Assembly: GCF_058153355.1 (NCBI RefSeq)
Contig: NZ_CM177019.1
Strand: one strand, 5' to 3'
Length of the DNA: 64,000 nt
Position numbers and translations under genes: made by a program. Below the pieces are notes generated by a model. The model worked only from the letters and a program-made list of their open reading frames with translations. It was not told the origin of the DNA and searched no databases. Below, piece by piece: positions 2,204 to 57,316 of this stretch. Each line of letters begins with the position of its first letter. The first letter of the stretch is position 1.

Positions 2204-3394
2204 CTATTGCGTCTGTTCTTCGAGTGTCACTGGCCAGCGACGAAAAATGATGATTGACCATATTAACGCGGCAAAAGCAGGCACCGCGCCCACATAACCA
2301 ATCATCGACATTGACCAGTGCAGACTGACCTGATTACCTACCAACGCGCCAGCGCCGATTCCAATATTAAATATTCCCGAGAATAGCGCCATCGCGACGT
2401 CGGTGGCATCTGGTGCCAGCGCCAGCACTTTAACCTGCATACCAAGCCCGATGATCATCATCGCGATCCCCCAGAAAATACTCAGCACCCCGAGGTGTAT
2501 TTCACTGTTCGCCGCAGGTAGCAGTAATGCAAGGCAGACCAGCAACAGCGCAATCGCCGTACTCACCAACGTAGACGCATACTGATTGCCCAGTTTACCG
2601 AAAATCACGCTGCCAATAATGCCCGCACCACCGAGTAATAACAGTAATGCCGTGGCAAAGTTAGCGCTGAATCCCGCAATGTTTTGCACAAAAGGCTCGA
2701 TATAGCTGTATGCCGTGTAATGGGCGGTGACAACCACCACAGTTAACAAATAAATGCTCATTAATGCCGGGCGGCGGAACAATAGCGGAAGGCTTTTCAA
2801 CGACCCTGAATGCTCGCTGGGGAGTAAGGGAAGTAACTTAATCAGGCACAGAAGGGTGATAAATGCCCCGATACCGATCGCGAAGAAGGTCATACGCCAA
2901 CCGAAATACTGCCCCACAATGCGCCCGAGAGGTAAACCTAATACCATCGCCAGAGCTGTACCGGTGGCAATTAAACTCAATGCCTGTGCTCGCTTTCCGG
3001 CCGGAGCCATACGGATCGCCAGAGACGCCGTAATCGACCAGAAAATCGCATGTGCAAAAGCTACACCAATGCGACTGATCACCAGAACGGTAAAGCTCCA
3101 CGACAAAAAAGACAGTACATGGCTGGCAATAAACACCACAAACAGGCAGATCAGTAATTTGCGGCGTTCAACCTGGCTTGTCATTAGCATAAAAGGCAAT
3201 GACATTAGCGCCACTACCCATGCATAAATGGTTAACATGATACCGACTTGAGCGGTTTGCATATGGAAACTTTGTGCGATGTCAGAAAGCAGGCCAACAG
3301 GGACAAATTCGGTAGTATTGAAGATGAAAGCGGCGACTGCCAGCGTAACTACCCGTAGCCACGCCACTTTGCGGGAAACAGTGTTTGTTGTCAT
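2204..3394 (-). CDS. sotB: MFS sugar efflux transporter SotB (YdeA)
   Basis: 396-aa ORF with about 12 predicted TM segments; recognised as SotB/YdeA; adjacent to marC as in the known map. Confidence 0.85.
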
Positions 3395-3541
3395 AACAGA
3401 TTATCGGGTGAGTTGCGAAAAGTAATGAAATGATCTTAAAACGGTTAATGATGTGAATACAATGCATTTGTGATCTAGATCGCATTTCCATCTCTCTGAC
3501 GGTTGTTCTGTCACGCGTCAGAGAGTTGTTAACATCACATT

Positions 3542-4657
3542 TTAATGACGATCAGGAAGGTCTGGCGTTTTGGTGGCTGATGGTAAAGGTGGCCTCACAG
3601 GGGAACGAGGCCTGTTGTCCAGTAGTTCTTCGTTACTAATTTTGGGCGGAATTTCATTTTTTACAAAAAGTTTTAAAATCTTGCGTGCCATACGATGGAT
3701 ACTTTTATCTTCACTTAATAATGCCGGTATCAACACATCATTCAGGTCATTTTCATTAGGTTTCATAAAAATTTGAAAGTGCAATAACATATTTGTAAAA
3801 AATAAGAATAGACTCTGAAAGTGAGGTATTTCTTTGTTTGATAAAAGCGATAAAAAGCAGATACAAACTTCAGGTAGTACTTGTTTGTTAGAACCTAATG
3901 AATCCATGAGCTTTTGTAATAACTCCTCTTTTAATGGGCTATCCTTTATGTCGTAGATGGCGGTGATTAAGTTTGGGTTTTTATTCGCGAACCACCTGTG
4001 GACCTGCGGCTTATTCCATAGTCGGGGGAGTATGACAAAATTACCACGAGAGATAAAGTTCAGTACGAATAAATCAAACTGACGTAAGTAATCTGCAGCG
4101 GTATGATGCTCAGGAGGAAGAGGTTCAATATGTGGAGTATGAGACCTTTTGATGGGGACGCCGGGGCTGATCATTGGAAATTGTTCAATAAAGTCATTAA
4201 GAAACAGAAAGAGCACACGCTCGACGCCGGTCTGAAAGGCCCGACCCATAGTGACAGGCTTTGGGTCGGGAGCACAATAAATATTAATTTCCCCATCGTG
4301 GCGAAAATTATCTAAATAAATAGGGCTTAAATTTATTACTACCTGAAATTCAATGTTTTCTTTATGTCTTCCATTCTTAACAGGATAAGTGAGTTTAAAT
4401 TGAACCTTTTCATTGTATAGCGTGTCGTTATCTCGGAAAGTTGTCCTCTGTATATAAGATAGGTTATCAAGATTATTGAATATCTTTTTGGTGTTTGAAT
4501 TGATGTTTAAAGACGTACGCCACTCCTCATCACATATTATAATGCTGAGCGCATCAATAAAATCCTTCAAAACTTCTTTTACCTGAGGTGCAATATTGCG
4601 AACGGGAAAATCATCAGGAAGTGAGATGAAATTGCTGATGCTTACTGGCGTAACCAT
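3542..4657 (-). CDS. yneK: Uncharacterised protein YneK
   Basis: 371-aa ORF with low GC and no recognisable domain; position between sotB and yneJ and length match YneK. Confidence 0.6.
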   Translation of the reverse strand: MVTPVSISNFISLPDDFPVRNIAPQVKEVLKDFIDALSIIICDEEWRTSLNINSNTKKIFNNLDNLSYIQRTTFRDNDTLYNEKVQFKLTYPVKNGRHKENIEFQVVINLSPIYLDNFRHDGEINIYCAPDPKPVTMGRAFQTGVERVLFLFLNDFIEQFPMISPGVPIKRSHTPHIEPLPPEHHTAADYLRQFDLFVLNFISRGNFVILPRLWNKPQVHRWFANKNPNLITAIYDIKDSPLKEELLQKLMDSLGSNKQVLPEVCICFLSLLSNKEIPHFQSLFLFFTNMLLHFQIFMKPNENDLNDVLIPALLSEDKSIHRMARKILKLFVKNEIPPKISNEELLDNRPRSPVRPPLPSATKTPDLPDRH

Positions 4658-41974: not shown

Positions 41975-42889
41975 ATGGGAAAAAAAATTAGTATAAATGT
42001 CCTGTTCAGTATTTATTTTCTTTTGATGGCAGGTAAAGTCTTCGCCTTCAGTTGTAATGTTGATGGTGGGTCAAGTATTGGCGCAGGTACAACTTCGGTG
42101 TATGTTAATCTCGATCCTGTCATTCAACCAGGTCAGAATCTGGTTGTAGATTTGTCTCAGCATATAAGTTGCTGGAATGATTACGGCGGCTGGTACGACA
42201 CAGATCATATTAACTTAGTACAAGGCTCAGCTTTCGCAGGCTCCCTACAGTCATATAAAGGATCGCTGTACTGGAATAATGTGACCTACCCCTTTCCGTT
42301 GACGACAAATACCAACGTGCTGGATATTGGTGATAAGACACCGATGCCCTTACCGTTAAAACTCTATATTACCCCTGTCGGGGCGGCCGGTGGCGTTGTC
42401 ATAAACGCGGGAGAAGTTATTGCTCGCATTCATATGTATAAAATTGCAACGTTAGGAAGTGGAAATCCGCGTAACTTTACATGGAATATTATTTCAAATA
42501 ACAGTGTTGTTATGCCAACGGGCGGCTGTACCGTTGATAGTCGTAATGTCACAGTGAGTCTCCCGGACTTTCCTGGAAGCGCAGAAATACCCCTGGGCGT
42601 ATATTGCTCAAGTGAGCAAAAGCTCTCATTTTATCTTTCGGGCGCTACCACTGACAGTGCCCGACAAGTGTTTGCTAATACAGCACCTGACGCAACAAAA
42701 GCATCAGGAGTCGGTGTCTCCCTGATGCGTAATGGAAAAATACTGGCTACGGGAGAAAATGTCTCCCTGGGAACGGTAAATAAAAGCAAAGTACCCCTGG
42801 GCTTAAGTGCAACTTATGGACAGACAGGAAGCAAGGTCGCAGCTGGAGCAGTACAGTCAGTCATTGGCGTTACATTTATCTATGAATAA
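41975..42889 (+). CDS. ydeQ: Two-domain fimbrial tip adhesin (FimH-like, lectin plus pilin domain)
   Basis: 304-aa ORF matching FimH along its length in conserved blocks (..[29 protein letters not shown]..; C-terminal ..[12 protein letters not shown]). Confidence 0.8.
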
Positions 42890-42971
42890 TTGTGATGTTG
42901 ACCCTGTTATACTTTAGGTTGTGCTTTCCATTTACTAAAATTACGCGGATAATTCTTTCCTGAGAGAAATT

Positions 42972-42989
42972 ATCCTACACCTGTAAGAA
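42972..42989. promoter_or_regulatory. Candidate EvgA box upstream of ydeP
   Basis: atcctaca-cc-tgtaagaa, fitting the inverted-repeat consensus TTCYTACA-N2-TGTARGAA; about 250 bp upstream of the ydeP start. Confidence 0.45.
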
Positions 42990-43237
42990 AATCCGCGCAC
43001 AATTGAAGTCAGAGTCTTATTTTATATATTGAAAAGTATGTTAACTTAAAGACTATGAGAGATGATGCTTAACTTATCGCATTTATACTATTCTGTTATG
43101 TGACGATAATGAGTTAAAAATAGAATGAGAGTAGCCCCCTACTCTCATATATCCAAATGGCCGATAAACCCATTATATATACTGCGCATCATCGCTATTA
43201 CAAATCCTAATAATTCATTTCCACACAGGATAAGCTG

Positions 43238-45517
43238 ATGAAGAAAAAAATTGAATCCTACCAGGGAGCTGCCGGTGGTTGGGGGGCTGTCAAATCTGTA
43301 GCGAATGCAGTCCGTAAGCAGATGGATATACGCCAGGAAGTGATTGCCATGTTTGACATGAATAAGCCAGAAGGCTTTGACTGTCCCGGATGTGCATGGC
43401 CAGATCCTAAGCACAGCGCGTCATTCGACATTTGTGAAAACGGCGCAAAAGCAATCGCCTGGGAAGTCACCGATAAGCAGGTGAATGCCTCTTTTTTCGC
43501 TGAGAATACGGTTCAATCATTACTTACCTGGGGAGATCACGAACTCGAGGCTGCGGGGCGTCTCACTCAACCTTTGAAATATGATGCCGTCAGCGACTGT
43601 TACCAGCCATTAAGCTGGCAACAAGCTTTCGACGAAATTGGCGCACGTCTTCAAAGTTATAGTGATCCAAATCAGGTTGAATTCTATACTTCGGGCCGCA
43701 CTTCCAATGAAGCTGCCTTTCTTTATCAGCTTTTTGCCCGTGAATACGGTACCAATAACTTTCCCGACTGCTCAAACATGTGCCATGAACCGACCAGCGT
43801 GGGTTTGGCAGCGAGTATCGGCGTGGGTAAAGGGACCGTGTTACTGGAAGACTTTGAGAAATGCGATTTAGTAATTTGCATTGGGCATAACCCTGGTACA
43901 AACCACCCTCGCATGCTGACTTCGTTGCGCGCTTTAGTGAAACGGGGAGCGAAAATGATTGCCATCAATCCTCTGCAGGAGCGTGGCCTGGAGCGATTTA
44001 CCGCACCACAGAACCCGTTTGAAATGCTGACGAACTCCGAGACTCAATTGGCTAGTGCTTACTATAATGTGCGCATTGGTGGCGATATGGCGTTGCTAAA
44101 GGGGATGATGCGCCTGTTAATTGAGCGCGATGATGCTGCAAGTGCTGCGGGTCGGCCCTCATTGCTGGATGACGAATTCATTCAAACGCATACCGTCGGC
44201 TTTGACGAGCTACGCCGTGACGTTCTCAATTCCGAGTGGAAAGATATCGAACGTATTTCTGGACTAAGTCAGACACAAATCGCCGAACTTGCTGATGCAT
44301 ATGCCGCTGCCGAACGAACCATTATCTGTTACGGAATGGGGATCACTCAGCACGAACATGGTACCCAGAACGTACAGCAACTTGTCAATCTGCTGTTGAT
44401 GAAGGGTAACATTGGCAAGCCTGGTGCGGGTATCTGCCCACTACGTGGTCACTCTAATGTACAGGGCGACCGAACCGTCGGTATCACCGAGAAACCGTCT
44501 GCAGAGTTTCTGGCTCGCCTGGGTGAGCGCTATGGCTTCACCCCACCTCATGCACCTGGACATGCTGCAATCGCCAGCATGCAAGCAATATGTACGGGGC
44601 AAGCTCGAGCATTGATCTGCATGGGGGGCAACTTTGCACTGGCAATGCCAGATCGGGAAGCGAGCGCTGTACCGTTAACGCAATTAGATCTGGCGGTACA
44701 CGTTGCCACAAAGCTTAACCGCTCACATCTGCTGACTGCACGGCATAGCTATATTCTGCCGGTTCTGGGACGTAGCGAGATTGACATGCAAAAAAGCGGT
44801 GCGCAGGCGGTAACCGTTGAGGATTCAATGTCAATGATTCATGCCTCGCGTGGCGTGTTAAAACCCGCAGGTGTCATGCTGAAATCAGAGTGTGCTGTGG
44901 TCGCGGGAATCGCGCAGGCAGCGCTCCCCCAGAGCGTGGTGGCCTGGGAGCATCTGGTGGAAGATTATGATCGCATTCGCAATGACATTGAAGCTGTGCT
45001 GCCAGAGTTCGCCGACTATAACCAGCGCATCCGCCATCCTGGTGGTTTTCACCTGATAAACGCAGCTGCTGAAAGGCGCTGGCTGACGTCGTCAGGTAAG
45101 GCTAATTTTATTACCAGTAAAGGGTTGTTAGAAGATCCCTCTTCGGCGTTTAACAGTAAGCTGGTCATGGCGACAGTGCGCAGTCACGATCAGTACAATA
45201 CGACGATTTATGGTATGGATGACCGCTATCGAGGGGTATTCGGTCAACGAGATGTGGTCTTCATGAGTGCTAAACAAGCTAAAGTTTGCGGTGTAAAAAA
45301 CGGCGAAAGAGTTAATCTTATTGCGCTTACGCCAGACGGTAAGCGCAGCTCACGCCGCATGGATAGATTAAAAGTGGTCATTTACCCTATGGCTGACCGC
45401 TCACTGGTGACCTATTTTCCAGAATCGAATCACATGCTAACACTTGATAACCACGATCCATTAAGTGGCATTCCTGGCTATAAAAGTATTCCGGTTGAAT
45501 TAGAACCATCAAATTAA
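43238..45517 (+). CDS. ydeP: YdeP, molybdopterin-oxidoreductase-like acid-resistance protein
   Basis: 759-aa ORF with N-terminal Cys cluster ([11 protein letters not shown]..) and MopB-type catalytic domain; recognised as YdeP. Confidence 0.85.
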
Positions 45518-45535
45518 TTCGCCTCCTCATTTCTT

Positions 45536-45566
45536 CTGCTGTCATCCGCACAGCAGAAGAATTCCT
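45536..45566 (+). terminator. Stem-loop downstream of ydeP
   Basis: Perfect 12-bp stem ttcttctgctgt / acagcagaagaa with 7-nt loop. Confidence 0.5.
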
Positions 45567-45635
45567 CATTGACCATTGTCGCGCAATTTACTCACATGTG
45601 CTAAATTAAACTGCTCGCTATAAGATATATACCTC

Positions 45636-45653
45636 CGCCTACAGCTGTAAGAA
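45636..45653. promoter_or_regulatory. Candidate EvgA box upstream of safA-ydeO
   Basis: cgcctaca-gc-tgtaagaa, same half-site architecture as the ydeP site; about 110 bp upstream of safA. Confidence 0.45.
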
Positions 45654-45764
45654 ACTCCGCTCAGTACTGAAGCACCAGTCCTATTTCCTCTTTTTTCCAG
45701 CCTGTTATATTAAGCATACTGATTAACGATTTTTAACGTTATCCGCTAAATAAACATATTTGAA

Positions 45765-45962
45765 ATGCATGCGACCACAGTGAAAAACAAAATCACGCAA
45801 AGAGACAACTATAAAGAAATCATGTCTGTAATTGTGGTTGTCTTATTACTGACACTTACGTTGATAGCCATTTTTTCGGCAATTGATCAGCTGGGTATTT
45901 CAGAAATGGGTCGCATTGCAAGAGATCTTACACATTTCATTATCAATAGTTTGCAAGACTGA
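45765..45962 (+). CDS. safA: SafA, small membrane connector between EvgS/EvgA and PhoQ/PhoP
   Basis: 65-aa ORF with single TM helix (..IMSVIVVVLLLTLTLIAIFSAI..) directly upstream of ydeO. Confidence 0.8.
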   Translation: MHATTVKNKITQRDNYKEIMSVIVVVLLLTLTLIAIFSAIDQLGISEMGRIARDLTHFIINSLQD

Positions 45963-46036
45963 AAATAAACAGCAAATTATAAATATGAAATGCTAAAAAA
46001 GTATCGATAAAAACTTTATTGTTTTAAGGAGATAAA

Positions 46037-46798
46037 ATGTCGCTCGTTTGTTCTGTTATATTTATTCATCATGCCTTCAACGCTAACATTTTAGATAAAG
46101 ATTACGCCTTCTCTGATGGTGAAATCCTGATGGTAGATAACGCTGTTCGTACGCATTTTGAACCTTATGAGCGGCATTTCAAAGAAATTGGATTTAATGA
46201 AAACACCATTAAAAAATATCTACAATGCACTAATATTCAGACAGTGACTATGCCTGTTCCTGCGAAGTTTTTACGTGCTTCAAATGTACCAACTGGATTA
46301 CTTAATGAAATGATTGCTTATCTCAACTCTGAAGAACGCAATCATCAGAATTTTTCTGAACTTTTGCTTTTTTCTTGCCTGTCTATTTTTGCTGCATGCA
46401 AAGGTTTCATTACATTATTAACTAACGGTGTGCTATCCGTATCAGGGAAAGTGAGAAACATTGTCAATATGAAGCTGGCACACCCATGGAAACTAAAAGA
46501 TATTTGTGATTGCCTGTATATTAGTGAAAGCCTGCTGAAGAAAAAACTAAAGCAAGAGCAAACGACATTCTCACAAATTCTTTTAGATGCCAGAATGCAA
46601 CACGCAAAAAATTTGATACGCGTAGAAGGTTCAGTCAATAAAATTGCCGAAAAATGTGGTTATGCCAGTACATCTTATTTTATTTATGCTTTCCGCAAAC
46701 ATTTCGGCAACAGTCCAAAGAGAGTTTCAAAGGAGTACCGTTGTCAAAGGCACACGAATATGAACACGGGCAACACGATGAATGCTTTGGCTAATTGA
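46037..46798 (+). CDS. ydeO: YdeO, AraC-family acid-resistance regulator
   Basis: 253-aa ORF with C-terminal AraC-type HTH (..KIAEKCGYASTSYFIYAFRKHFGNSP..). Confidence 0.85.
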   Translation: MSLVCSVIFIHHAFNANILDKDYAFSDGEILMVDNAVRTHFEPYERHFKEIGFNENTIKKYLQCTNIQTVTMPVPAKFLRASNVPTGLLNEMIAYLNSEERNHQNFSELLLFSCLSIFAACKGFITLLTNGVLSVSGKVRNIVNMKLAHPWKLKDICDCLYISESLLKKKLKQEQTTFSQILLDARMQHAKNLIRVEGSVNKIAEKCGYASTSYFIYAFRKHFGNSPKRVSKEYRCQRHTNMNTGNTMNALAN

Positions 46799-47198
46799 TT
46801 ATTCGCTCACGTATAGTCAACTACAAACGCTAAGTAAGAATTAAAGGGGCAGCTATTACCTGCCCCAATCTGTCGTTACGAATTGTATTTCATGATGAGA
46901 ATTAGTGATATACATCACAAATTTATGCATCTGAATAATCTGTTTCATATTTATTTATGATCTCAATGCAATGAATTACCAAAAAAACACATAATATCAT
47001 TTAATTTCAATCATTTAGTTATTTGGCATTGTGAATTTACCTAGCTCAACAGAAAGCAATGTCAACGCGTTATGGACTATTATTTCTCTTTTTTTAGCCA
47101 AATCTGCTATCTCTTTATGTGACTCACTTCACTTACATCATCTTATTTCTCTTCGTAAAATTACTTTGGAATTAAGTACAATAAGAAGAGGAACATTT

Positions 47199-50380: not shown

Positions 50381-52066
50381 ATGATAACCATTCCCATTAC
50401 GTTTTGTATGTTGATAGCAAAGTATCTCTGTCTGCTGAAGCCCTTTTGGCTGCGTAAGAATAATAAAACTTCAGTGTTGTTAATCATTATTATCCTCGCC
50501 ATGATCCTTGGCGTGGTTAAAATTCAGGTCTGGTTAAACGACTGGAATAATGATTTTTTCAATGCGCTAAGCCAGAAAGAAACTGATAAGCTTTGGCAGC
50601 TTGTCCTTTGGTTCCCTGCCCTGCTGGGGATCTTTGTATTAATATCCGTAAACAAAACATGGTTAATTAAACTACTGACTATTCGCTGGCGCGAATGGTT
50701 AACAGATTACTACCTTAATCGCTGGTTTGCAGATAAAAACTACTATTTCACGCAGATCTACGGCGAGCATAAAAATACAGATAACCCTGACCAACGTATC
50801 GCTGAAGACATTCTCTTACTGATCAGCAAAACGCTCAGCCTTTCATTTGGCTTCATCCAGTCACTTAGCATGCTGATCACCTTTACCGTTATTCTTTGGC
50901 AAAGCGCGGGTACGCTCTCATTCACTGTTGGTGGAACTGAATGGAGTATCCAGGGGTATATGGTCTATACCGTCGTGCTCATTGTGATCGGTGGAACTTT
51001 ATTTACCCATAAGGTTGGTAAACGTATTCGTCCGCTTAATGTGGAAAAACAACGTAGCGAAGCGACATTTCGAACTAATCTTGTGCAGCATAATAAGCAG
51101 GCAGAACTGATTGCGCTAAGCAATGCTGAGTCTCTACAACGCCAGGAGTTGAGCGAAAATTTTCATACCATTAAAGAGAACTGGCATCGTTTAATGAATC
51201 GTCAGCGGTGGCTTGATTACTGGCAGAATATTTATTCGCGCTCGCTTAGCGTTCTTCCCTACTTTCTGTTATTGCCGCAGTTTATTAGCGGACAGATCAA
51301 TCTGGGCGGACTGATGAAATCACGCCAGGCATTTATGCTGGTATCGAACAATTTAAGCTGGTTTATTTATAAATATGATGAACTTGCTGAACTGGCTGCG
51401 GTTATCGATCGCTTGTATGAGTTCCATCAACTCACCGAACAGCGCCCTACGAATAAGCCTAAAAATTGCCAACATGCGGTACAAGTGGCTGACGCGAGTA
51501 TTCGTACTCCTGATAATAAGATCATATTAGAGAACCTGAACTTTCATGTTTCGCCAGGCAAATGGCTATTACTGAAAGGTTACTCTGGTGCGGGAAAAAC
51601 CACACTGCTTAAAACATTATCCCACTGCTGGCCGTGGTTTAAAGGTGATATTTCTTCTCCTGCTGACAGTTGGTATGTGTCACAAACACCGTTAATCAAA
51701 ACCGGCTTACTGAAAGAGATTATTTGTAAAGCACTTCCCCTGTCCGTAGACGATAAATCGTTGAGCGAAGTACTGCATCAGGTTGGTCTGGGGAAATTGG
51801 CTGCGCGTATTCATGATCACGATCGCTGGGGAGATATTCTTTCCAGCGGCGAAAAACAACGTATCGCCCTGGCTCGATTAATTTTACGACGTCCGAAATG
51901 GATATTTCTTGACGAAACTACCTCTCATCTTGAGGAACAAGAGGCAATCCGCTTACTGCGTTTAGTGCGAGAACAACTCCCCACAAGCGGCGTCATTATG
52001 GTTACACATCAACCCGGTGTCTGGAACCTGGTCGATGATATTTGTGACATTAGCGCGGTTATATAA
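50381..52066 (+). CDS. yddA: YddA, fused ABC transporter permease/ATPase
   Basis: 561-aa ORF with N-terminal TM domain and C-terminal ABC ATPase (Walker A GYSGAGKTT; signature LSSGEKQR). Confidence 0.85.
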   Translation: MITIPITFCMLIAKYLCLLKPFWLRKNNKTSVLLIIIILAMILGVVKIQVWLNDWNNDFFNALSQKETDKLWQLVLWFPALLGIFVLISVNKTWLIKLLTIRWREWLTDYYLNRWFADKNYYFTQIYGEHKNTDNPDQRIAEDILLLISKTLSLSFGFIQSLSMLITFTVILWQSAGTLSFTVGGTEWSIQGYMVYTVVLIVIGGTLFTHKVGKRIRPLNVEKQRSEATFRTNLVQHNKQAELIALSNAESLQRQELSENFHTIKENWHRLMNRQRWLDYWQNIYSRSLSVLPYFLLLPQFISGQINLGGLMKSRQAFMLVSNNLSWFIYKYDELAELAAVIDRLYEFHQLTEQRPTNKPKNCQHAVQVADASIRTPDNKIILENLNFHVSPGKWLLLKGYSGAGKTTLLKTLSHCWPWFKGDISSPADSWYVSQTPLIKTGLLKEIICKALPLSVDDKSLSEVLHQVGLGKLAARIHDHDRWGDILSSGEKQRIALARLILRRPKWIFLDETTSHLEEQEAIRLLRLVREQLPTSGVIMVTHQPGVWNLVDDICDISAVI

Positions 52067-52103
52067 AAACAATAAAAGCCCTGCTGTACGGAGATATAAA
52101 TAA

Positions 52104-54476
52104 ATGAAGCGAGTTCTTATTCCTGGCGTCATTTTATGTGGCGCTGATGTAGCGCAGGCCGTCGATGACAAAAATATGTACATGCATGTTTTTGAAGAGA
52201 TGACGGTCTATGCTCCTGTCCCTGTACCCGTAAACGGCAACACGCATTACACCAGTGAAAGCATCGAGCGTTTACCGACCGGGAATGGCAATATCAGCGA
52301 TCTGCTGAGAACCAACCCTGCGGTACGCATGGATTCAACGCAAAGTACCTCATTGAACCAGGGAGATATTCGCCCGGAGAAAATCTCTATTCACGGTGCG
52401 TCGCCCTACCAGAATGCCTATTTGATTGACGGTATTAGTGCAACGAATAACCTGAACCCAGCGAATGAGTCCGATGCCAGTAGTGCAACCAATATTAGCG
52501 GGATGTCACAGGGGTATTATCTTGATGTCAGCTTACTGGACAATGTGACGCTTTATGACAGTTTTGTGCCGGTTGAATTTGGCCGCTTCAATGGCGGGGT
52601 AATTGATGCAAAGATCAAACGCTTCAACGCTGATGATAGTAGCGTGAAACTGGGTTATCGTACTACGCGGTCGGACTGGTTAACATCGCATCTCGATGAG
52701 AATAACAAAAGCGCATTTAATCAAGGTTCTTCAGGAAGTACTTATTACTCTCCAGATTTTAAAAAGAACTTTTATACCTTGTCGTTTAATCAGGAACTCG
52801 CTGATAACTTTGGCGTTACCGCCGGTTTATCGCGCCGCCAGTCTGATATCATCCGCGCGGATTATGTTTCGAATGACGGCATTGTCGCCGGCAGGGCACA
52901 GTATAAAAACGTTATCGATACTGCATTGAGCAAATTTACCTGGTTTGCCAGCGACCGCTTTACCCACGATTTAACCTTAAAATATACCGGCTCCAGCCGT
53001 GATTATAATACCAGCACCTTCCCGGAGTCTGATCGCGAAATGGGTAATAAATCCTATGGTCTGGCATGGGATATGGATACCCAGCTCGCATGGGCCAAAC
53101 TGCGTACCACCGTTGGTTGGGATCATATTAGTGATTATACCCGTCACGATCATGACATCTGGTACACCGAACTTTCATGTACATATGGTGATATTTCAGG
53201 GCGTTGCACCCGTGGCGGATTAGGACACATTTCCCAGGCTGTAGATAATTACACCTTCAAAACACGCCTTGACTGGCAAAAATTCGCCGTGGGTAATGTT
53301 TCGCATCAACCCTACTTCGGCGCGGAATACATCTATTCAGATGCATGGACTGAACGCCATAACCAGTCTGAATCCTATGTGATTAATGCTGCCGGAAAGA
53401 AAACTAACCATACCATTTACCATAAAGGTAAAGGCAGCCTGGGAATAGACAATTACACGCTGTATATGGCGGATCGCATTAACTGGCGTAATGTGTCGTT
53501 AATGCCCGGCGTGCGGTATGACTATGATAACTATCTGTCAAACCACAATATCTCCCCGCGCTTTATGACGGAATGGGATATTTTTGCTGATCAAACCTCA
53601 ATGATTACCGCAGGTTATAACCGTTACTATGGCGGGAATATTCTTGATATGGGATTACGTGATATCCGCAATAGCTGGACGGAATCGGTATCAGGCAATA
53701 AAACCCTGACGCGTTATCAGGATTTGAAAACGCCTTATAACGATGAACTGGCAATGGGATTGCAGCAAAAAATCGGTAAGAACGTTATTGCGCGCGCAAA
53801 CTATGTTTACCGTGAAGCGCATGATCAAATCAGCAAAAGCAGTCGTACCGACAGCGCGACTAAAACCACCATTACTGAATATAACAACGACGGCAAAACC
53901 AAAACGCATTCGTTCAACCTCAGTTTTGAACTGGCCGAACCCCTGCATATCAGACAGGTAGATATTAACCCGCAAGTTGTCTTTAGCTATATCAAGAGCA
54001 AGGGCAACTTGTCGTTGAACAATGGTTATGAGGAGAGCAATACCGGTGATAACCAGGTGGTCTATAACGGTAATCTGGTTTCTTACGATAGCGTTCCGGT
54101 GGCAGATTTTAATAATCCATTAAAGATCTCCTTAAACATGGATTTCACACATCAACCGAGCGGGTTGGTGTGGGCGAATACGCTGGCCTGGCAAGAAGCG
54201 CGTAAAGCTCGCATTATCCTCGGTAAAACGAATGCGCAATACCTTAGCGAATATTCAGATTACAAACAGTATGTTGATGAAAAACTGGATAGCAGCCTGA
54301 CCTGGGACACCCGCTTGTCCTGGACGCCACAATTTCTGAAACAACAAAACCTGACGATCAGTGCCGATATTCTCAATGTACTGGATAGCAAAACCGCTGT
54401 TGATACAACGAATACCGGCGTGGCGACCTACGCCAGTGGCCGTACTTTCTGGCTTGATGTCAGCATGAAATTTTAA
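52104..54476 (+). CDS. yddB: YddB, TonB-dependent-receptor-like outer-membrane protein
   Basis: 790-aa ORF with signal peptide and beta-barrel ending in the terminal aromatic residue (..WLDVSMKF). Confidence 0.8.
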   Translation: MKRVLIPGVILCGADVAQAVDDKNMYMHVFEEMTVYAPVPVPVNGNTHYTSESIERLPTGNGNISDLLRTNPAVRMDSTQSTSLNQGDIRPEKISIHGASPYQNAYLIDGISATNNLNPANESDASSATNISGMSQGYYLDVSLLDNVTLYDSFVPVEFGRFNGGVIDAKIKRFNADDSSVKLGYRTTRSDWLTSHLDENNKSAFNQGSSGSTYYSPDFKKNFYTLSFNQELADNFGVTAGLSRRQSDIIRADYVSNDGIVAGRAQYKNVIDTALSKFTWFASDRFTHDLTLKYTGSSRDYNTSTFPESDREMGNKSYGLAWDMDTQLAWAKLRTTVGWDHISDYTRHDHDIWYTELSCTYGDISGRCTRGGLGHISQAVDNYTFKTRLDWQKFAVGNVSHQPYFGAEYIYSDAWTERHNQSESYVINAAGKKTNHTIYHKGKGSLGIDNYTLYMADRINWRNVSLMPGVRYDYDNYLSNHNISPRFMTEWDIFADQTSMITAGYNRYYGGNILDMGLRDIRNSWTESVSGNKTLTRYQDLKTPYNDELAMGLQQKIGKNVIARANYVYREAHDQISKSSRTDSATKTTITEYNNDGKTKTHSFNLSFELAEPLHIRQVDINPQVVFSYIKSKGNLSLNNGYEESNTGDNQVVYNGNLVSYDSVPVADFNNPLKISLNMDFTHQPSGLVWANTLAWQEARKARIILGKTNAQYLSEYSDYKQYVDEKLDSSLTWDTRLSWTPQFLKQQNLTISADILNVLDSKTAVDTTNTGVATYASGRTFWLDVSMKF

Positions 54477-54520
54477 TAGTTCGGATTTTACTTAACCGGG
54501 TAAATTCGCCCGGTTTTCGC

Positions 54521-57316
54521 ATGGAGATAATTATGAGAAACCTCTGTTTCTTACTGACGTTAGTGGCAACTCTGTTGCTCCCCGGGCGACTGATTGCCGC
54601 CGCCTTACCACAGGATGAAAAGTTAATTACCGGGCAACTGGACAATGGCTTGCGATATCTGATTTATCCGCATGCTCAACCAAAGGATCAGGTAAATTTA
54701 TGGCTGCAAATTCATACCGGTTCATTGCAGGAAGAAGACAATGAGCGCGGCGTGGCTCATTTTGTAGAACATATGATGTTTAACGGCACAAAAACATGGC
54801 CGGGTAATAAAGTCATCGAAACATTTGAGTCAATGGGCCTGCGTTTTGGTCGCGATGTTAATGCCTATACCAGCTATGACGAAACAGTGTATCAGGTGAG
54901 TTTGCCGACTACGCAGAAACAAAATCTGCAACAAGTGATGGCAATCTTCAGTGAATGGAGTAATGCCGCAACCTTTGAAAAACTCGAAGTAGACGCTGAA
55001 CGCGGCGTAATTACTGAGGAATGGCGTGCCCATCAGGATGCGAAATGGCGCACCTCTCAGGCGCGCCGCCCTTTCCTGCTGGCAAATACCCGTAATTTAG
55101 ACCGTGAACCTATCGGCCTGATGGATACTGTTGCCACAGTCACACCGGCACAATTGCGCCAATTTTATCAACGCTGGTATCAACCCAATAATATGACCTT
55201 TATTGTGGTCGGCGATATCGACAGTAAAGAAGCGCTGGCGCTGATAAAGGATAATTTAAGTAAGCTCCCGGCTAATAAAGCAGCTGAAAATCGCGTCTGG
55301 CCGACAAAAGCAGAAAACAATCTACGCTTTAATATTATTAATGATAAAGAAAACCGGGTGAACGGCATTGCACTCTATTATCGCCTGCCACTGGTACAAG
55401 TAAACGATGAGCAAAGCTTTATCGAACAAGCGGAATGGAGCATGTTGGTTCAGCTGTTCAATCAACGTCTGCAGGAACGTATACAGTCGGGCGAATTGAA
55501 GACTATTTCTGGTGGCACTGCGCGCAGCGTTAAAATTGCACCCGATTATCAGTCGCTGTTTTTCCGTGTAAATGCACGTGACAATAATATGCAGGATGCT
55601 GCGAATGCATTAATGGCAGAGTTGGCAACCCTCGATCAACATGGTTTTTCTGCTGAAGAACTCGACGATGTTAAAACTACCCGCCTTACCTGGCTGAAAA
55701 ATGCGGTTGATCAGCAAGCTGAACGAGATTTACGTATGCTGACCAGTCGCCTGGCGTCCAGCTCGTTAAATAATACGCCGTTCTTGTCGCCGGAAGAGAC
55801 ATACCAACTTTCGAAACGTCTGTGGCCGCAAATTACCGTGCAAAGTCTGGCGGAAAAATGGCAGCAGCTAAGAAAGAACCAGGACGCATTTTGGGAGCAA
55901 ATGGTGAATAACGAGGTTGCAGCCAACAAAGCATTATCTCCTGCGGCTATCCTGGCGCTGGAAAAAGAGTACGCCAACAAAAAGCTGGCAGCTTACATCT
56001 TCCCTGGCAGAAATTTATCGTTAACAGTAGACGCTGACCCACAGGCGGAAATTAGCAGTAAAGAAACACTGGCTGAGAATCTGACATCATTAACACTTTC
56101 TAATGGTGCCAGGGTTATTCTGGCAAAATCAGCGGGTGAAGAGCAAAAGCTACAAATTATTGCCGTATCTAATAAAGGTGATTTAAGTTTCCCTGCGGAG
56201 CAAAAATCACTTATCGCGCTGGCAAATAAAGCGGTGAGTGGCAGCGGCGTTGGTGATCTCTCCTCTTCCAGCCTGAAACGCTGGAGTGCGGAAAACTCGG
56301 TAACCATGAGCAGCAAAGTCAGTGGGCTGAATACGTTGCTCTCCGTGAGCGCGCGGGCTAATAATCCTGAACCTGGTTTCCAGTTGATTAACCAGCGAAT
56401 CACTCACAGCACGATTAATGACAATATTTGGGCATCGCTACAAAATGCTCAAATTCAGGCGTTGAAAACGCTCGACCAACGTCCAGCAGAGAAATTCGCC
56501 CAGCAGATGTATGAGAAGCGCTATGCTGATGATCGTACGAAATTACTGCAAGAAAAACAGATTGCACAATTTACTGCCGCAGACGCGCTGGCAGCCGATC
56601 GCCAGTTATTTTCATCTCCAGCGGATATCACGTTTGTCGTTGTCGGTAATGTCGCAGAAGACAAACTTCTGCCGTTAATTACGCGTTACTTAGGATCAAT
56701 AAAACACTCTGATTCGCCATTAGCCGCAGGTAAACCATTAACTCGCGCGACGGACAACGCATCGGTTACAGTAAAAGAACAAAATGAACCTGTGGCACAG
56801 GTTTCACAGTGGAATCGTTATGATTCCCGGACACCTGTAAATCTGGAGACGCGTATGGCGCTCGATGCTTTTAACGTCGCACTGGCAAAAGATCTACGCG
56901 TTAATATTCGTGAACAGGCATCTGGAGCATACAGCGTTTCTTCTCGCCTCTCGGTTGATCCTCAGGCCAAAGATATCAGTCATTTGCTGGCTTTTACTTG
57001 TCAACCAGAACGACATGATGAACTGTTAACGTTAGCGAATGAAGTGATGGTTAAGCGTCTGGCTAAAGGGATCAGTGAGCAAGAACTGAATGAATACCAG
57101 CAAAACGTTCAGCGCAGCCTCGATATCCAACAGCGTAGCGTTCAACAATTAGCGAACACCATTGTAAATAGTCTTATTCAATATGACGATCCTGCCGCAT
57201 GGACTGCGCAGGAGCAATTATTGAAACAAATGACGGTAGATAATGTTAACACTACGGTTAAACAATATCTTTCTCATCCGGTGAATACCTTTACCGGAGT
57301 ATTACTACCAAAATAA
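54521..57316 (+). CDS. pqqL: PqqL, periplasmic M16-family zinc peptidase
   Basis: 931-aa ORF with signal peptide and inverted zinc-binding motif HFVEHMMFNG. Confidence 0.85.
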   Translation: MEIIMRNLCFLLTLVATLLLPGRLIAAALPQDEKLITGQLDNGLRYLIYPHAQPKDQVNLWLQIHTGSLQEEDNERGVAHFVEHMMFNGTKTWPGNKVIETFESMGLRFGRDVNAYTSYDETVYQVSLPTTQKQNLQQVMAIFSEWSNAATFEKLEVDAERGVITEEWRAHQDAKWRTSQARRPFLLANTRNLDREPIGLMDTVATVTPAQLRQFYQRWYQPNNMTFIVVGDIDSKEALALIKDNLSKLPANKAAENRVWPTKAENNLRFNIINDKENRVNGIALYYRLPLVQVNDEQSFIEQAEWSMLVQLFNQRLQERIQSGELKTISGGTARSVKIAPDYQSLFFRVNARDNNMQDAANALMAELATLDQHGFSAEELDDVKTTRLTWLKNAVDQQAERDLRMLTSRLASSSLNNTPFLSPEETYQLSKRLWPQITVQSLAEKWQQLRKNQDAFWEQMVNNEVAANKALSPAAILALEKEYANKKLAAYIFPGRNLSLTVDADPQAEISSKETLAENLTSLTLSNGARVILAKSAGEEQKLQIIAVSNKGDLSFPAEQKSLIALANKAVSGSGVGDLSSSSLKRWSAENSVTMSSKVSGLNTLLSVSARANNPEPGFQLINQRITHSTINDNIWASLQNAQIQALKTLDQRPAEKFAQQMYEKRYADDRTKLLQEKQIAQFTAADALAADRQLFSSPADITFVVVGNVAEDKLLPLITRYLGSIKHSDSPLAAGKPLTRATDNASVTVKEQNEPVAQVSQWNRYDSRTPVNLETRMALDAFNVALAKDLRVNIREQASGAYSVSSRLSVDPQAKDISHLLAFTCQPERHDELLTLANEVMVKRLAKGISEQELNEYQQNVQRSLDIQQRSVQQLANTIVNSLIQYDDPAAWTAQEQLLKQMTVDNVNTTVKQYLSHPVNTFTGVLLPK

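Follow-up and report, generated by a model that had tools for sequence, protein, structure and literature searches.

The two 18-bp inverted repeats that precede ydeP and safA-ydeO in the window, i.e., the whole 64-kb stretch of DNA that was analyzed, are very probably the EvgA operators of these two promoters, which belong to the EvgS/EvgA acid-resistance regulon. The ydeP box, ATCCTACACCTGTAAGAA, spans positions 42972-42989 on the plus strand and has the structure ATCCTACA-CC-TGTAAGAA, and the safA box, CGCCTACAGCTGTAAGAA, spans positions 45636-45653 on the plus strand and has the structure CGCCTACA-GC-TGTAAGAA. The initial annotation had proposed two 18-bp sites with a common half-site architecture in front of these genes, and both are read exactly where it had placed them. 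Direct EvgA dependence and EvgA binding at both promoters are taken from the literature, and the sites, their rarity, their recurrence at other promoters and the conservation of their cores were computed here. The boxes at ydeP and safA are an already known element, and this reading of them is correct but ordinary.

The genes at the locus are all on the plus strand and comprise ydeQ (41975-42889, an open reading frame named from the annotation of matching genomes), ydeP (43238-45517), which encodes a putative acid-resistance oxidoreductase of 759 aa, safA (45765-45962, 65 aa) and ydeO (46037-46798, 253 aa). For gene names we relied on what is annotated beneath the matches in 5,389 of 5,426 complete E. 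coli genomes, together with the annotation of strain N96, whose sequence at this locus is 99.7% identical. It follows from the coordinates and strands of these four genes that the boxes are intergenic and lie directly 5' of their transcription units, as had been claimed for them. The distance from the end of the box to the start codon is 248 nt for ydeP and 111 nt for safA.

Between the ydeP stop codon and the safA box there is a hairpin on the plus strand (45531-45561), 14 nt past the stop codon, with a 12-bp stem, TTCTTCTGCTGT-catccgc-ACAGCAGAAGAA. Its folding energy is -17.5 kcal/mol (z -4.5), and its sequence is the same in the window, in K-12 and in the metagenome contig L006. Our terminator scan did not call the hairpin at 45531-45561, on account of its weak T-run. 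The hairpin is likely the ydeP terminator, setting ydeP apart from the safA promoter, and its location fits two separate units. In contrast to two units, PMC11052181 names a 'ydeP-safA-ydeO operon'.

From position 3 to the end, the two boxes have 15 of 16 bases in common. In both, the gene-proximal half matches TGTAAGAA perfectly, and the mismatches to TTCYTACANNTGTARGAA, one in the ydeP box and two in the safA box, all fall within the outermost two bases of the gene-distal half, which is off consensus in starting with ATC at ydeP and CGC at safA compared with TTC. The consensus TTCYTACA-NN-TGTARGAA, which reportedly goes back to Masuda & Church 2003, was used to search the window. At up to 2 mismatches the two boxes are the sole matches in the 64 kb, where 0.01 would be expected, and none of 100 shuffles yielded two matches. 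At up to 3 mismatches the window still contains just the two boxes, with 0.56 expected, and at least two matches occurred in 12 of 100 shuffles. This last figure is what speaks for both inverted repeats being chance palindromes in AT-rich intergenic DNA, a reading whose probability we regard as practically nil. It is effectively refuted by the expectation and the shuffles at up to 2 mismatches, by the agreement of the cores at 15 of 16 bases, by both boxes being conserved and correctly placed, and by the recurrence of the motif at other K-12 EvgA promoters.

The same motif is found at other promoters of the EvgA regulon. Full-text literature searches for the box sequences or for a printed consensus returned nothing relevant, the footprint papers themselves lying outside the search. 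We re-derived the consensus from the K-12 regions that carry other EvgA-activated operons, about 55 kb in total, scanned at up to 3 mismatches. The motif is present in the emrK-evgA intergenic region (TTCTTACGCCTGTAGGAT), upstream of frc (yfdW) as a perfect palindrome (TTCTTACAACTGTAAGAA), upstream of yfdX as two boxes 38 bp apart, and upstream of yegR (TTCCTACATAAGTAGGAA). Elsewhere in these K-12 loci the scan gave just two sites, both in coding sequence (ydeO and mdtE). The motif accordingly recurs 5' of other directly regulated operons and is rare elsewhere, both in the approximately 55 kb of K-12 loci and in the window. The 18-bp inverted repeats of the window fit TTCYTACA-NN-TGTARGAA, and the match to an EvgA consensus that the initial annotation had proposed is supported, as the same 8-2-8 inverted repeat emerges from the K-12 regulon promoters. 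The K-12 gadE upstream region contains no box at up to 4 mismatches, and EvgA action there must use a weaker or different site.

Published work places the boxes in the promoter regions of genes whose EvgA dependence has been stated. Expression of ydeP, safA and ydeO is EvgA-dependent (PMC11210196, PMC9496106, PMC5706723, PMC8174306, PMC4283999), ydeP is under direct EvgA regulation, after Itou 2009 (PMC8174306), and the safA-ydeO promoter is bound by EvgA (PMC9496106). EvgA also binds inverted repeats at yfdX and yfdW, after Masuda & Church 2003 (PMC3720670), and all directly regulated genes are reported to have an EvgA site (PMC4283999). The evgAS genes are present in almost all E. coli (PMC5706723); in K-12 they are about 900 kb away from ydeP, and they lie outside this window.

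The half-sites contain TAAGAA/TTCTTA, and they resemble the half-sites of other NarL/FixJ-family regulators such as the RcsB box and the BvgA heptads. Additionally, an influence of YdeO and PhoP on ydeP and safA has been reported. The repeats might on these grounds be operators for, or be shared with, a different LuxR/NarL-type regulator, e.g., RcsB with or without GadE. We consider this very unlikely, as the motif is specifically associated with the EvgA regulon (emrK/evgA, frc, yfdX, yegR), the half-sites of RcsB-type boxes are oriented the opposite way, and loss of induction in an evgA deletion has already been reported. Direct EvgA regulation or binding is, moreover, stated in several papers (PMC9496106, PMC8174306, PMC4283999).

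The boxes correspond to the EvgA boxes of K-12 ydeP and safA(b1500)-ydeO (Masuda & Church 2003; Itou, Eguchi & Utsumi 2009, as cited), with the same loci and genes. The K-12 sites, AGCCTACACCTGTAAGAA at ydeP and TGCCTACAGCTGTAAGAA at safA, are identical to the window boxes from position 3 on and lie at an equal distance to the promoter elements. The differences from K-12 are only allelic: the ydeP box has T at position 2 where K-12 has G, the safA box has C at position 1 where K-12 has T, and the window ydeP leader has 5 extra nt. Compared with the other K-12 EvgA boxes (emrK-evgA, frc, yfdX, yegR), the 8-2-8 repeat is shared. However, while TTC or xTC is kept in both halves of those boxes, the distal half is degenerate at ydeP and safA.

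The similarity between the ydeP and safA promoters continues in register far beyond the box, and this indicates a duplicated promoter cassette. The ydeP copy of about 105 bp, at 42974-43078 on the plus strand, contains the box core, a spacer with TCCGC, TGAAG and AGTCYTATTT, an extended -10 and the start-site region, and the paralogous safA copy is at 45638-45742 on the same strand. Aligned without gaps, the copies match at 15 of 16 core positions and at 38 of the next 62 nt, roughly 65% overall, and the resemblance tails off some 105 nt past the start of the box. The match over the 62-nt spacer is 6.3 sd over the window background and is the best non-self match of about 128,000 positions (the next best has 32). 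The spacers of the other K-12 EvgA promoters are, in contrast, unrelated beyond the shared columns described below, with 19-28 of 62 matches as compared to 38-39 of 62 for ydeP versus safA. This suggests that a single cassette of about 105 bp was duplicated to give the ydeP and safA promoters.

As the promoters are clearly paralogous, ancestry alone could account for the second box, in which case one box would be functional and the other would be a passive passenger of the approximately 105-bp duplication. This is highly improbable, since both cores are invariant over ten alleles and the DNA adjacent to them on the upstream side diverges, and since EvgA activation and binding are reported for both units (PMC9496106, PMC8174306).

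The region from 42600 to 46100, covering ydeQ-ydeP-safA-ydeO, is unusually divergent; 5,287 records match it at about 94% identity, and only 18 reach 99% or more. In contrast, the region at 52000-55500 (yddB-pqqL) is 95-99% identical to nearly all. The source strain apparently belongs to an uncommon lineage and carries a divergent allele of the ydeQ-ydeO locus. With no more than about 94% identity to most E. coli, the locus provides a useful conservation footprint.

Ten alleles were compared for each promoter (the window, K-12, N96, two metagenome contigs, and five or six other strains). Over these alleles the ydeP box reads A[T/G]CCTACACCTGTAAGAA, with positions 3-18 invariant and position 2 either T or G. 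The safA box reads [C/T]GCCTACAG[C/A]TGTAAGAA, and its positions 2-18 are invariant except for a spacer change from GC to GA in the allele L011. Apart from this spacer change, the variation among alleles falls in the outer distal bases, so the constrained part starts at CCTACA, and the ydeP and safA promoters do not keep the TT at the outer end of the distal half-site. Between the window and K-12, the core of the ydeP box is identical at 16 of 16 positions, compared with 44 of the 60 columns just upstream (73%) and 92% of the 66 nt downstream. The corresponding values for safA are 16 of 16 in the core, 46 of 60 just upstream (77%) and 98% of the 66 nt downstream. The core is hence under sequence constraint relative to the flanking non-coding DNA.

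The cassette also contains promoter elements at a fixed distance from the box. A candidate extended -10 for ydeP, TG-T-TAACTT (TGTTAACTT; TGTTAATTT in K-12), is located at 43039-43047 on the plus strand, which is +50 to +58 relative to the box end, and it is preceded by just a TTnnnn -35 at 43020-43025. The candidate extended -10 for safA, TG-T-TATATT (TGTTATATT), is located at 45703-45711 on the same strand and has the same box distance as the ydeP element. The ydeP element is kept as TGTTAAyTT in nine of ten alleles (TGTTAACTT or TGTTAATTT), and the tenth, L010, has an IS insertion. The safA element is invariant in the alleles that retain this stretch, and is replaced by IS3000 in L013.

The K-12 ydeP leader used in PMC11210196 begins at -178 relative to the ATG. 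This position maps to box end +66, an A located 8 nt past the extended -10 and equivalent to position 43055 in the window. Judged by this leader, ydeP transcription would start at the A at 43055 on the plus strand and give a 183-nt leader, and by homology safA transcription would start near 45719. The promoters appear to be of the extended -10 type with only a TTnnnn -35. A start at 43055 would put the box centre near -74.5, so activation would be from an upstream, class-I-like position.

A different ydeP promoter, TTGAAG-16-TATATT, is listed together with H-NS in the RNA polymerase genomic-SELEX survey of PMC3946193. Our promoter consensus scan also found this sequence, at 43003-43030, and the box centre would be near -56 if it were used. 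As a shared EvgA-dependent promoter it was rejected, given that it has no safA counterpart and that its -35 is TTAACG in two natural alleles. The extended -10 is preferred because it is common to both promoters and fits the leader beginning at -178.

The fixed register extends to the rest of the regulon. Six gene-proximal K-12 EvgA promoters (ydeP, safA, emrK, frc, yfdX and yegR) were aligned on their boxes, and all six have, by eye, a -10-like hexamer at +52 to +60 from the box end. The columns that are invariant in all six are CA at +9/+10, TC at +26/+27 and T at +31, and the window has them in the same register; T +31 would be the first base of the TTnnnn -35. The shared CA at about -57, the TC at about -40 and the -35 with TT only are thus at a fixed distance from the box in six promoters. 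When sets of four promoters were taken, with one of ydeP/safA and one of frc/yfdX, 5-8 columns were invariant where a rotation null predicts about 2 (P = 0.0003 to 0.04). It is conceivable, although we put it forward only tentatively, that EvgA activation needs a rigid module of about 75 bp and not the 18-bp box alone, and that the E. coli-specific regulon has grown by cassette copying. At the shared extra positions, further EvgA subunits or the C-terminal domain of the RNA polymerase alpha subunit could make contact.

BvgA, which acts at Bordetella virulence promoters, is a close homologue of EvgA. BvgA sites consist of an upstream high-affinity inverted repeat of TTTCYTA heptads and downstream low-affinity sites that reach to the -35. 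The EvgA boxes have a similar half-site core (TTCYTA) and likewise a primary inverted repeat well 5' of the -35, here at about -74.5. When the spacers between the box and the -35 of ydeP, safA, emrK and frc were scanned with a weight matrix from 14 EvgA half-sites, no secondary half-site of at least 4 bits was found. A BvgA-like architecture with secondary half-sites and a chain of dimers was therefore rejected for want of sequence support. In the ydeP alleles of L009 and L011 the TGAAG block reads TAACG, which also counts against BvgA-like half-sites.

In the most likely mechanism, mild acid pH leads the EvgS kinase to phosphorylate EvgA, a helix-turn-helix regulator of the NarL/FixJ type (PMC11210196, PMC9496106, PMC5706723). 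An EvgA dimer would then occupy the 8-2-8 inverted repeat and, acting from about -74.5, switch on a weak sigma-70 promoter of the extended -10 type. Among the genes under this control, ydeP provides glutamate-independent acid resistance. SafA activates PhoQ, and YdeO activates gadE (PMC11210196, PMC9496106, PMC5706723). The boxes head the EvgA-YdeO-GadE acid-resistance cascade, and a divergent E. coli lineage has kept them intact. Knowledge of the regulon is unchanged by these results, and the modest addition lies in describing the extended promoter, with its duplicated cassette, its constant register between box and promoter, and the invariant bases common to the EvgA promoters. The shared bases and the cassette give specific positions to mutate in order to study how EvgA activates from about -74.

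The ydeP leader contains a second hairpin at 43125-43148, with a perfect 10-bp stem, ATGAGAGTAG-CCCC-CTACTCTCAT, and a folding energy of -13.4 kcal/mol on the plus strand and -16.0 kcal/mol on the minus strand. It resembles an intrinsic terminator on the minus strand only, where it is followed by TCTATTTTTA, and it is partly conserved in K-12. The Rfam search of 42500-46900 matched no RNA family, the ydeP leader hairpin included. This hairpin could mark the end of an antisense transcript or have a role in the leader.

A scan of species-representative genomes with the extended box CCTACANCTGTAAGAAANTCCGC returned two contigs, both with K-12-like ydeP/safA promoter DNA in metagenome bins; the E. 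coli reference itself is missing from the output, so the scan cannot support absence in other species. Among the metagenome sequences, L006 (JARKOR010000108.1, assigned to a Candidatus Nanosynbacter MAG) is a 13-kb contig with both boxes, and in the promoter regions of ydeP and safA it is identical, or nearly so, to K-12. It is probably a mis-binned E. coli contig.

Insertion sequences have entered these promoters in two of the compared records. In strain CFS3292 (L010, NZ_CP026935.2, about 3090-4100), ISApl1 lies in the ydeP promoter 40 nt past the box and parts the box from the -10. Judging by its position, the ISApl1 insertion is a natural disruption of EvgA control of ydeP. In plasmid pKFu015_2 (L013, NZ_CP147132.1, 1354-4228), which is 92.6 kb, ydeP is flanked by two direct copies of IS3000. 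At the first junction the ydeP promoter is cut about 36 nt past the expected box end, which removes the box but leaves the extended -10 in place, and at the second junction the safA promoter is cut 33 nt past its box. These junctions fall at almost homologous points of the two paralogous promoters.

Elsewhere in the window, positions 28000-31500 are rare accessory DNA with any match in only 232 of 5,426 complete E. coli genomes, the best having 88% coverage and 95.5% identity. Annotated in the matching records are a NEL-type E3 ubiquitin ligase domain protein, an ankyrin-repeat protein and an HTH protein.
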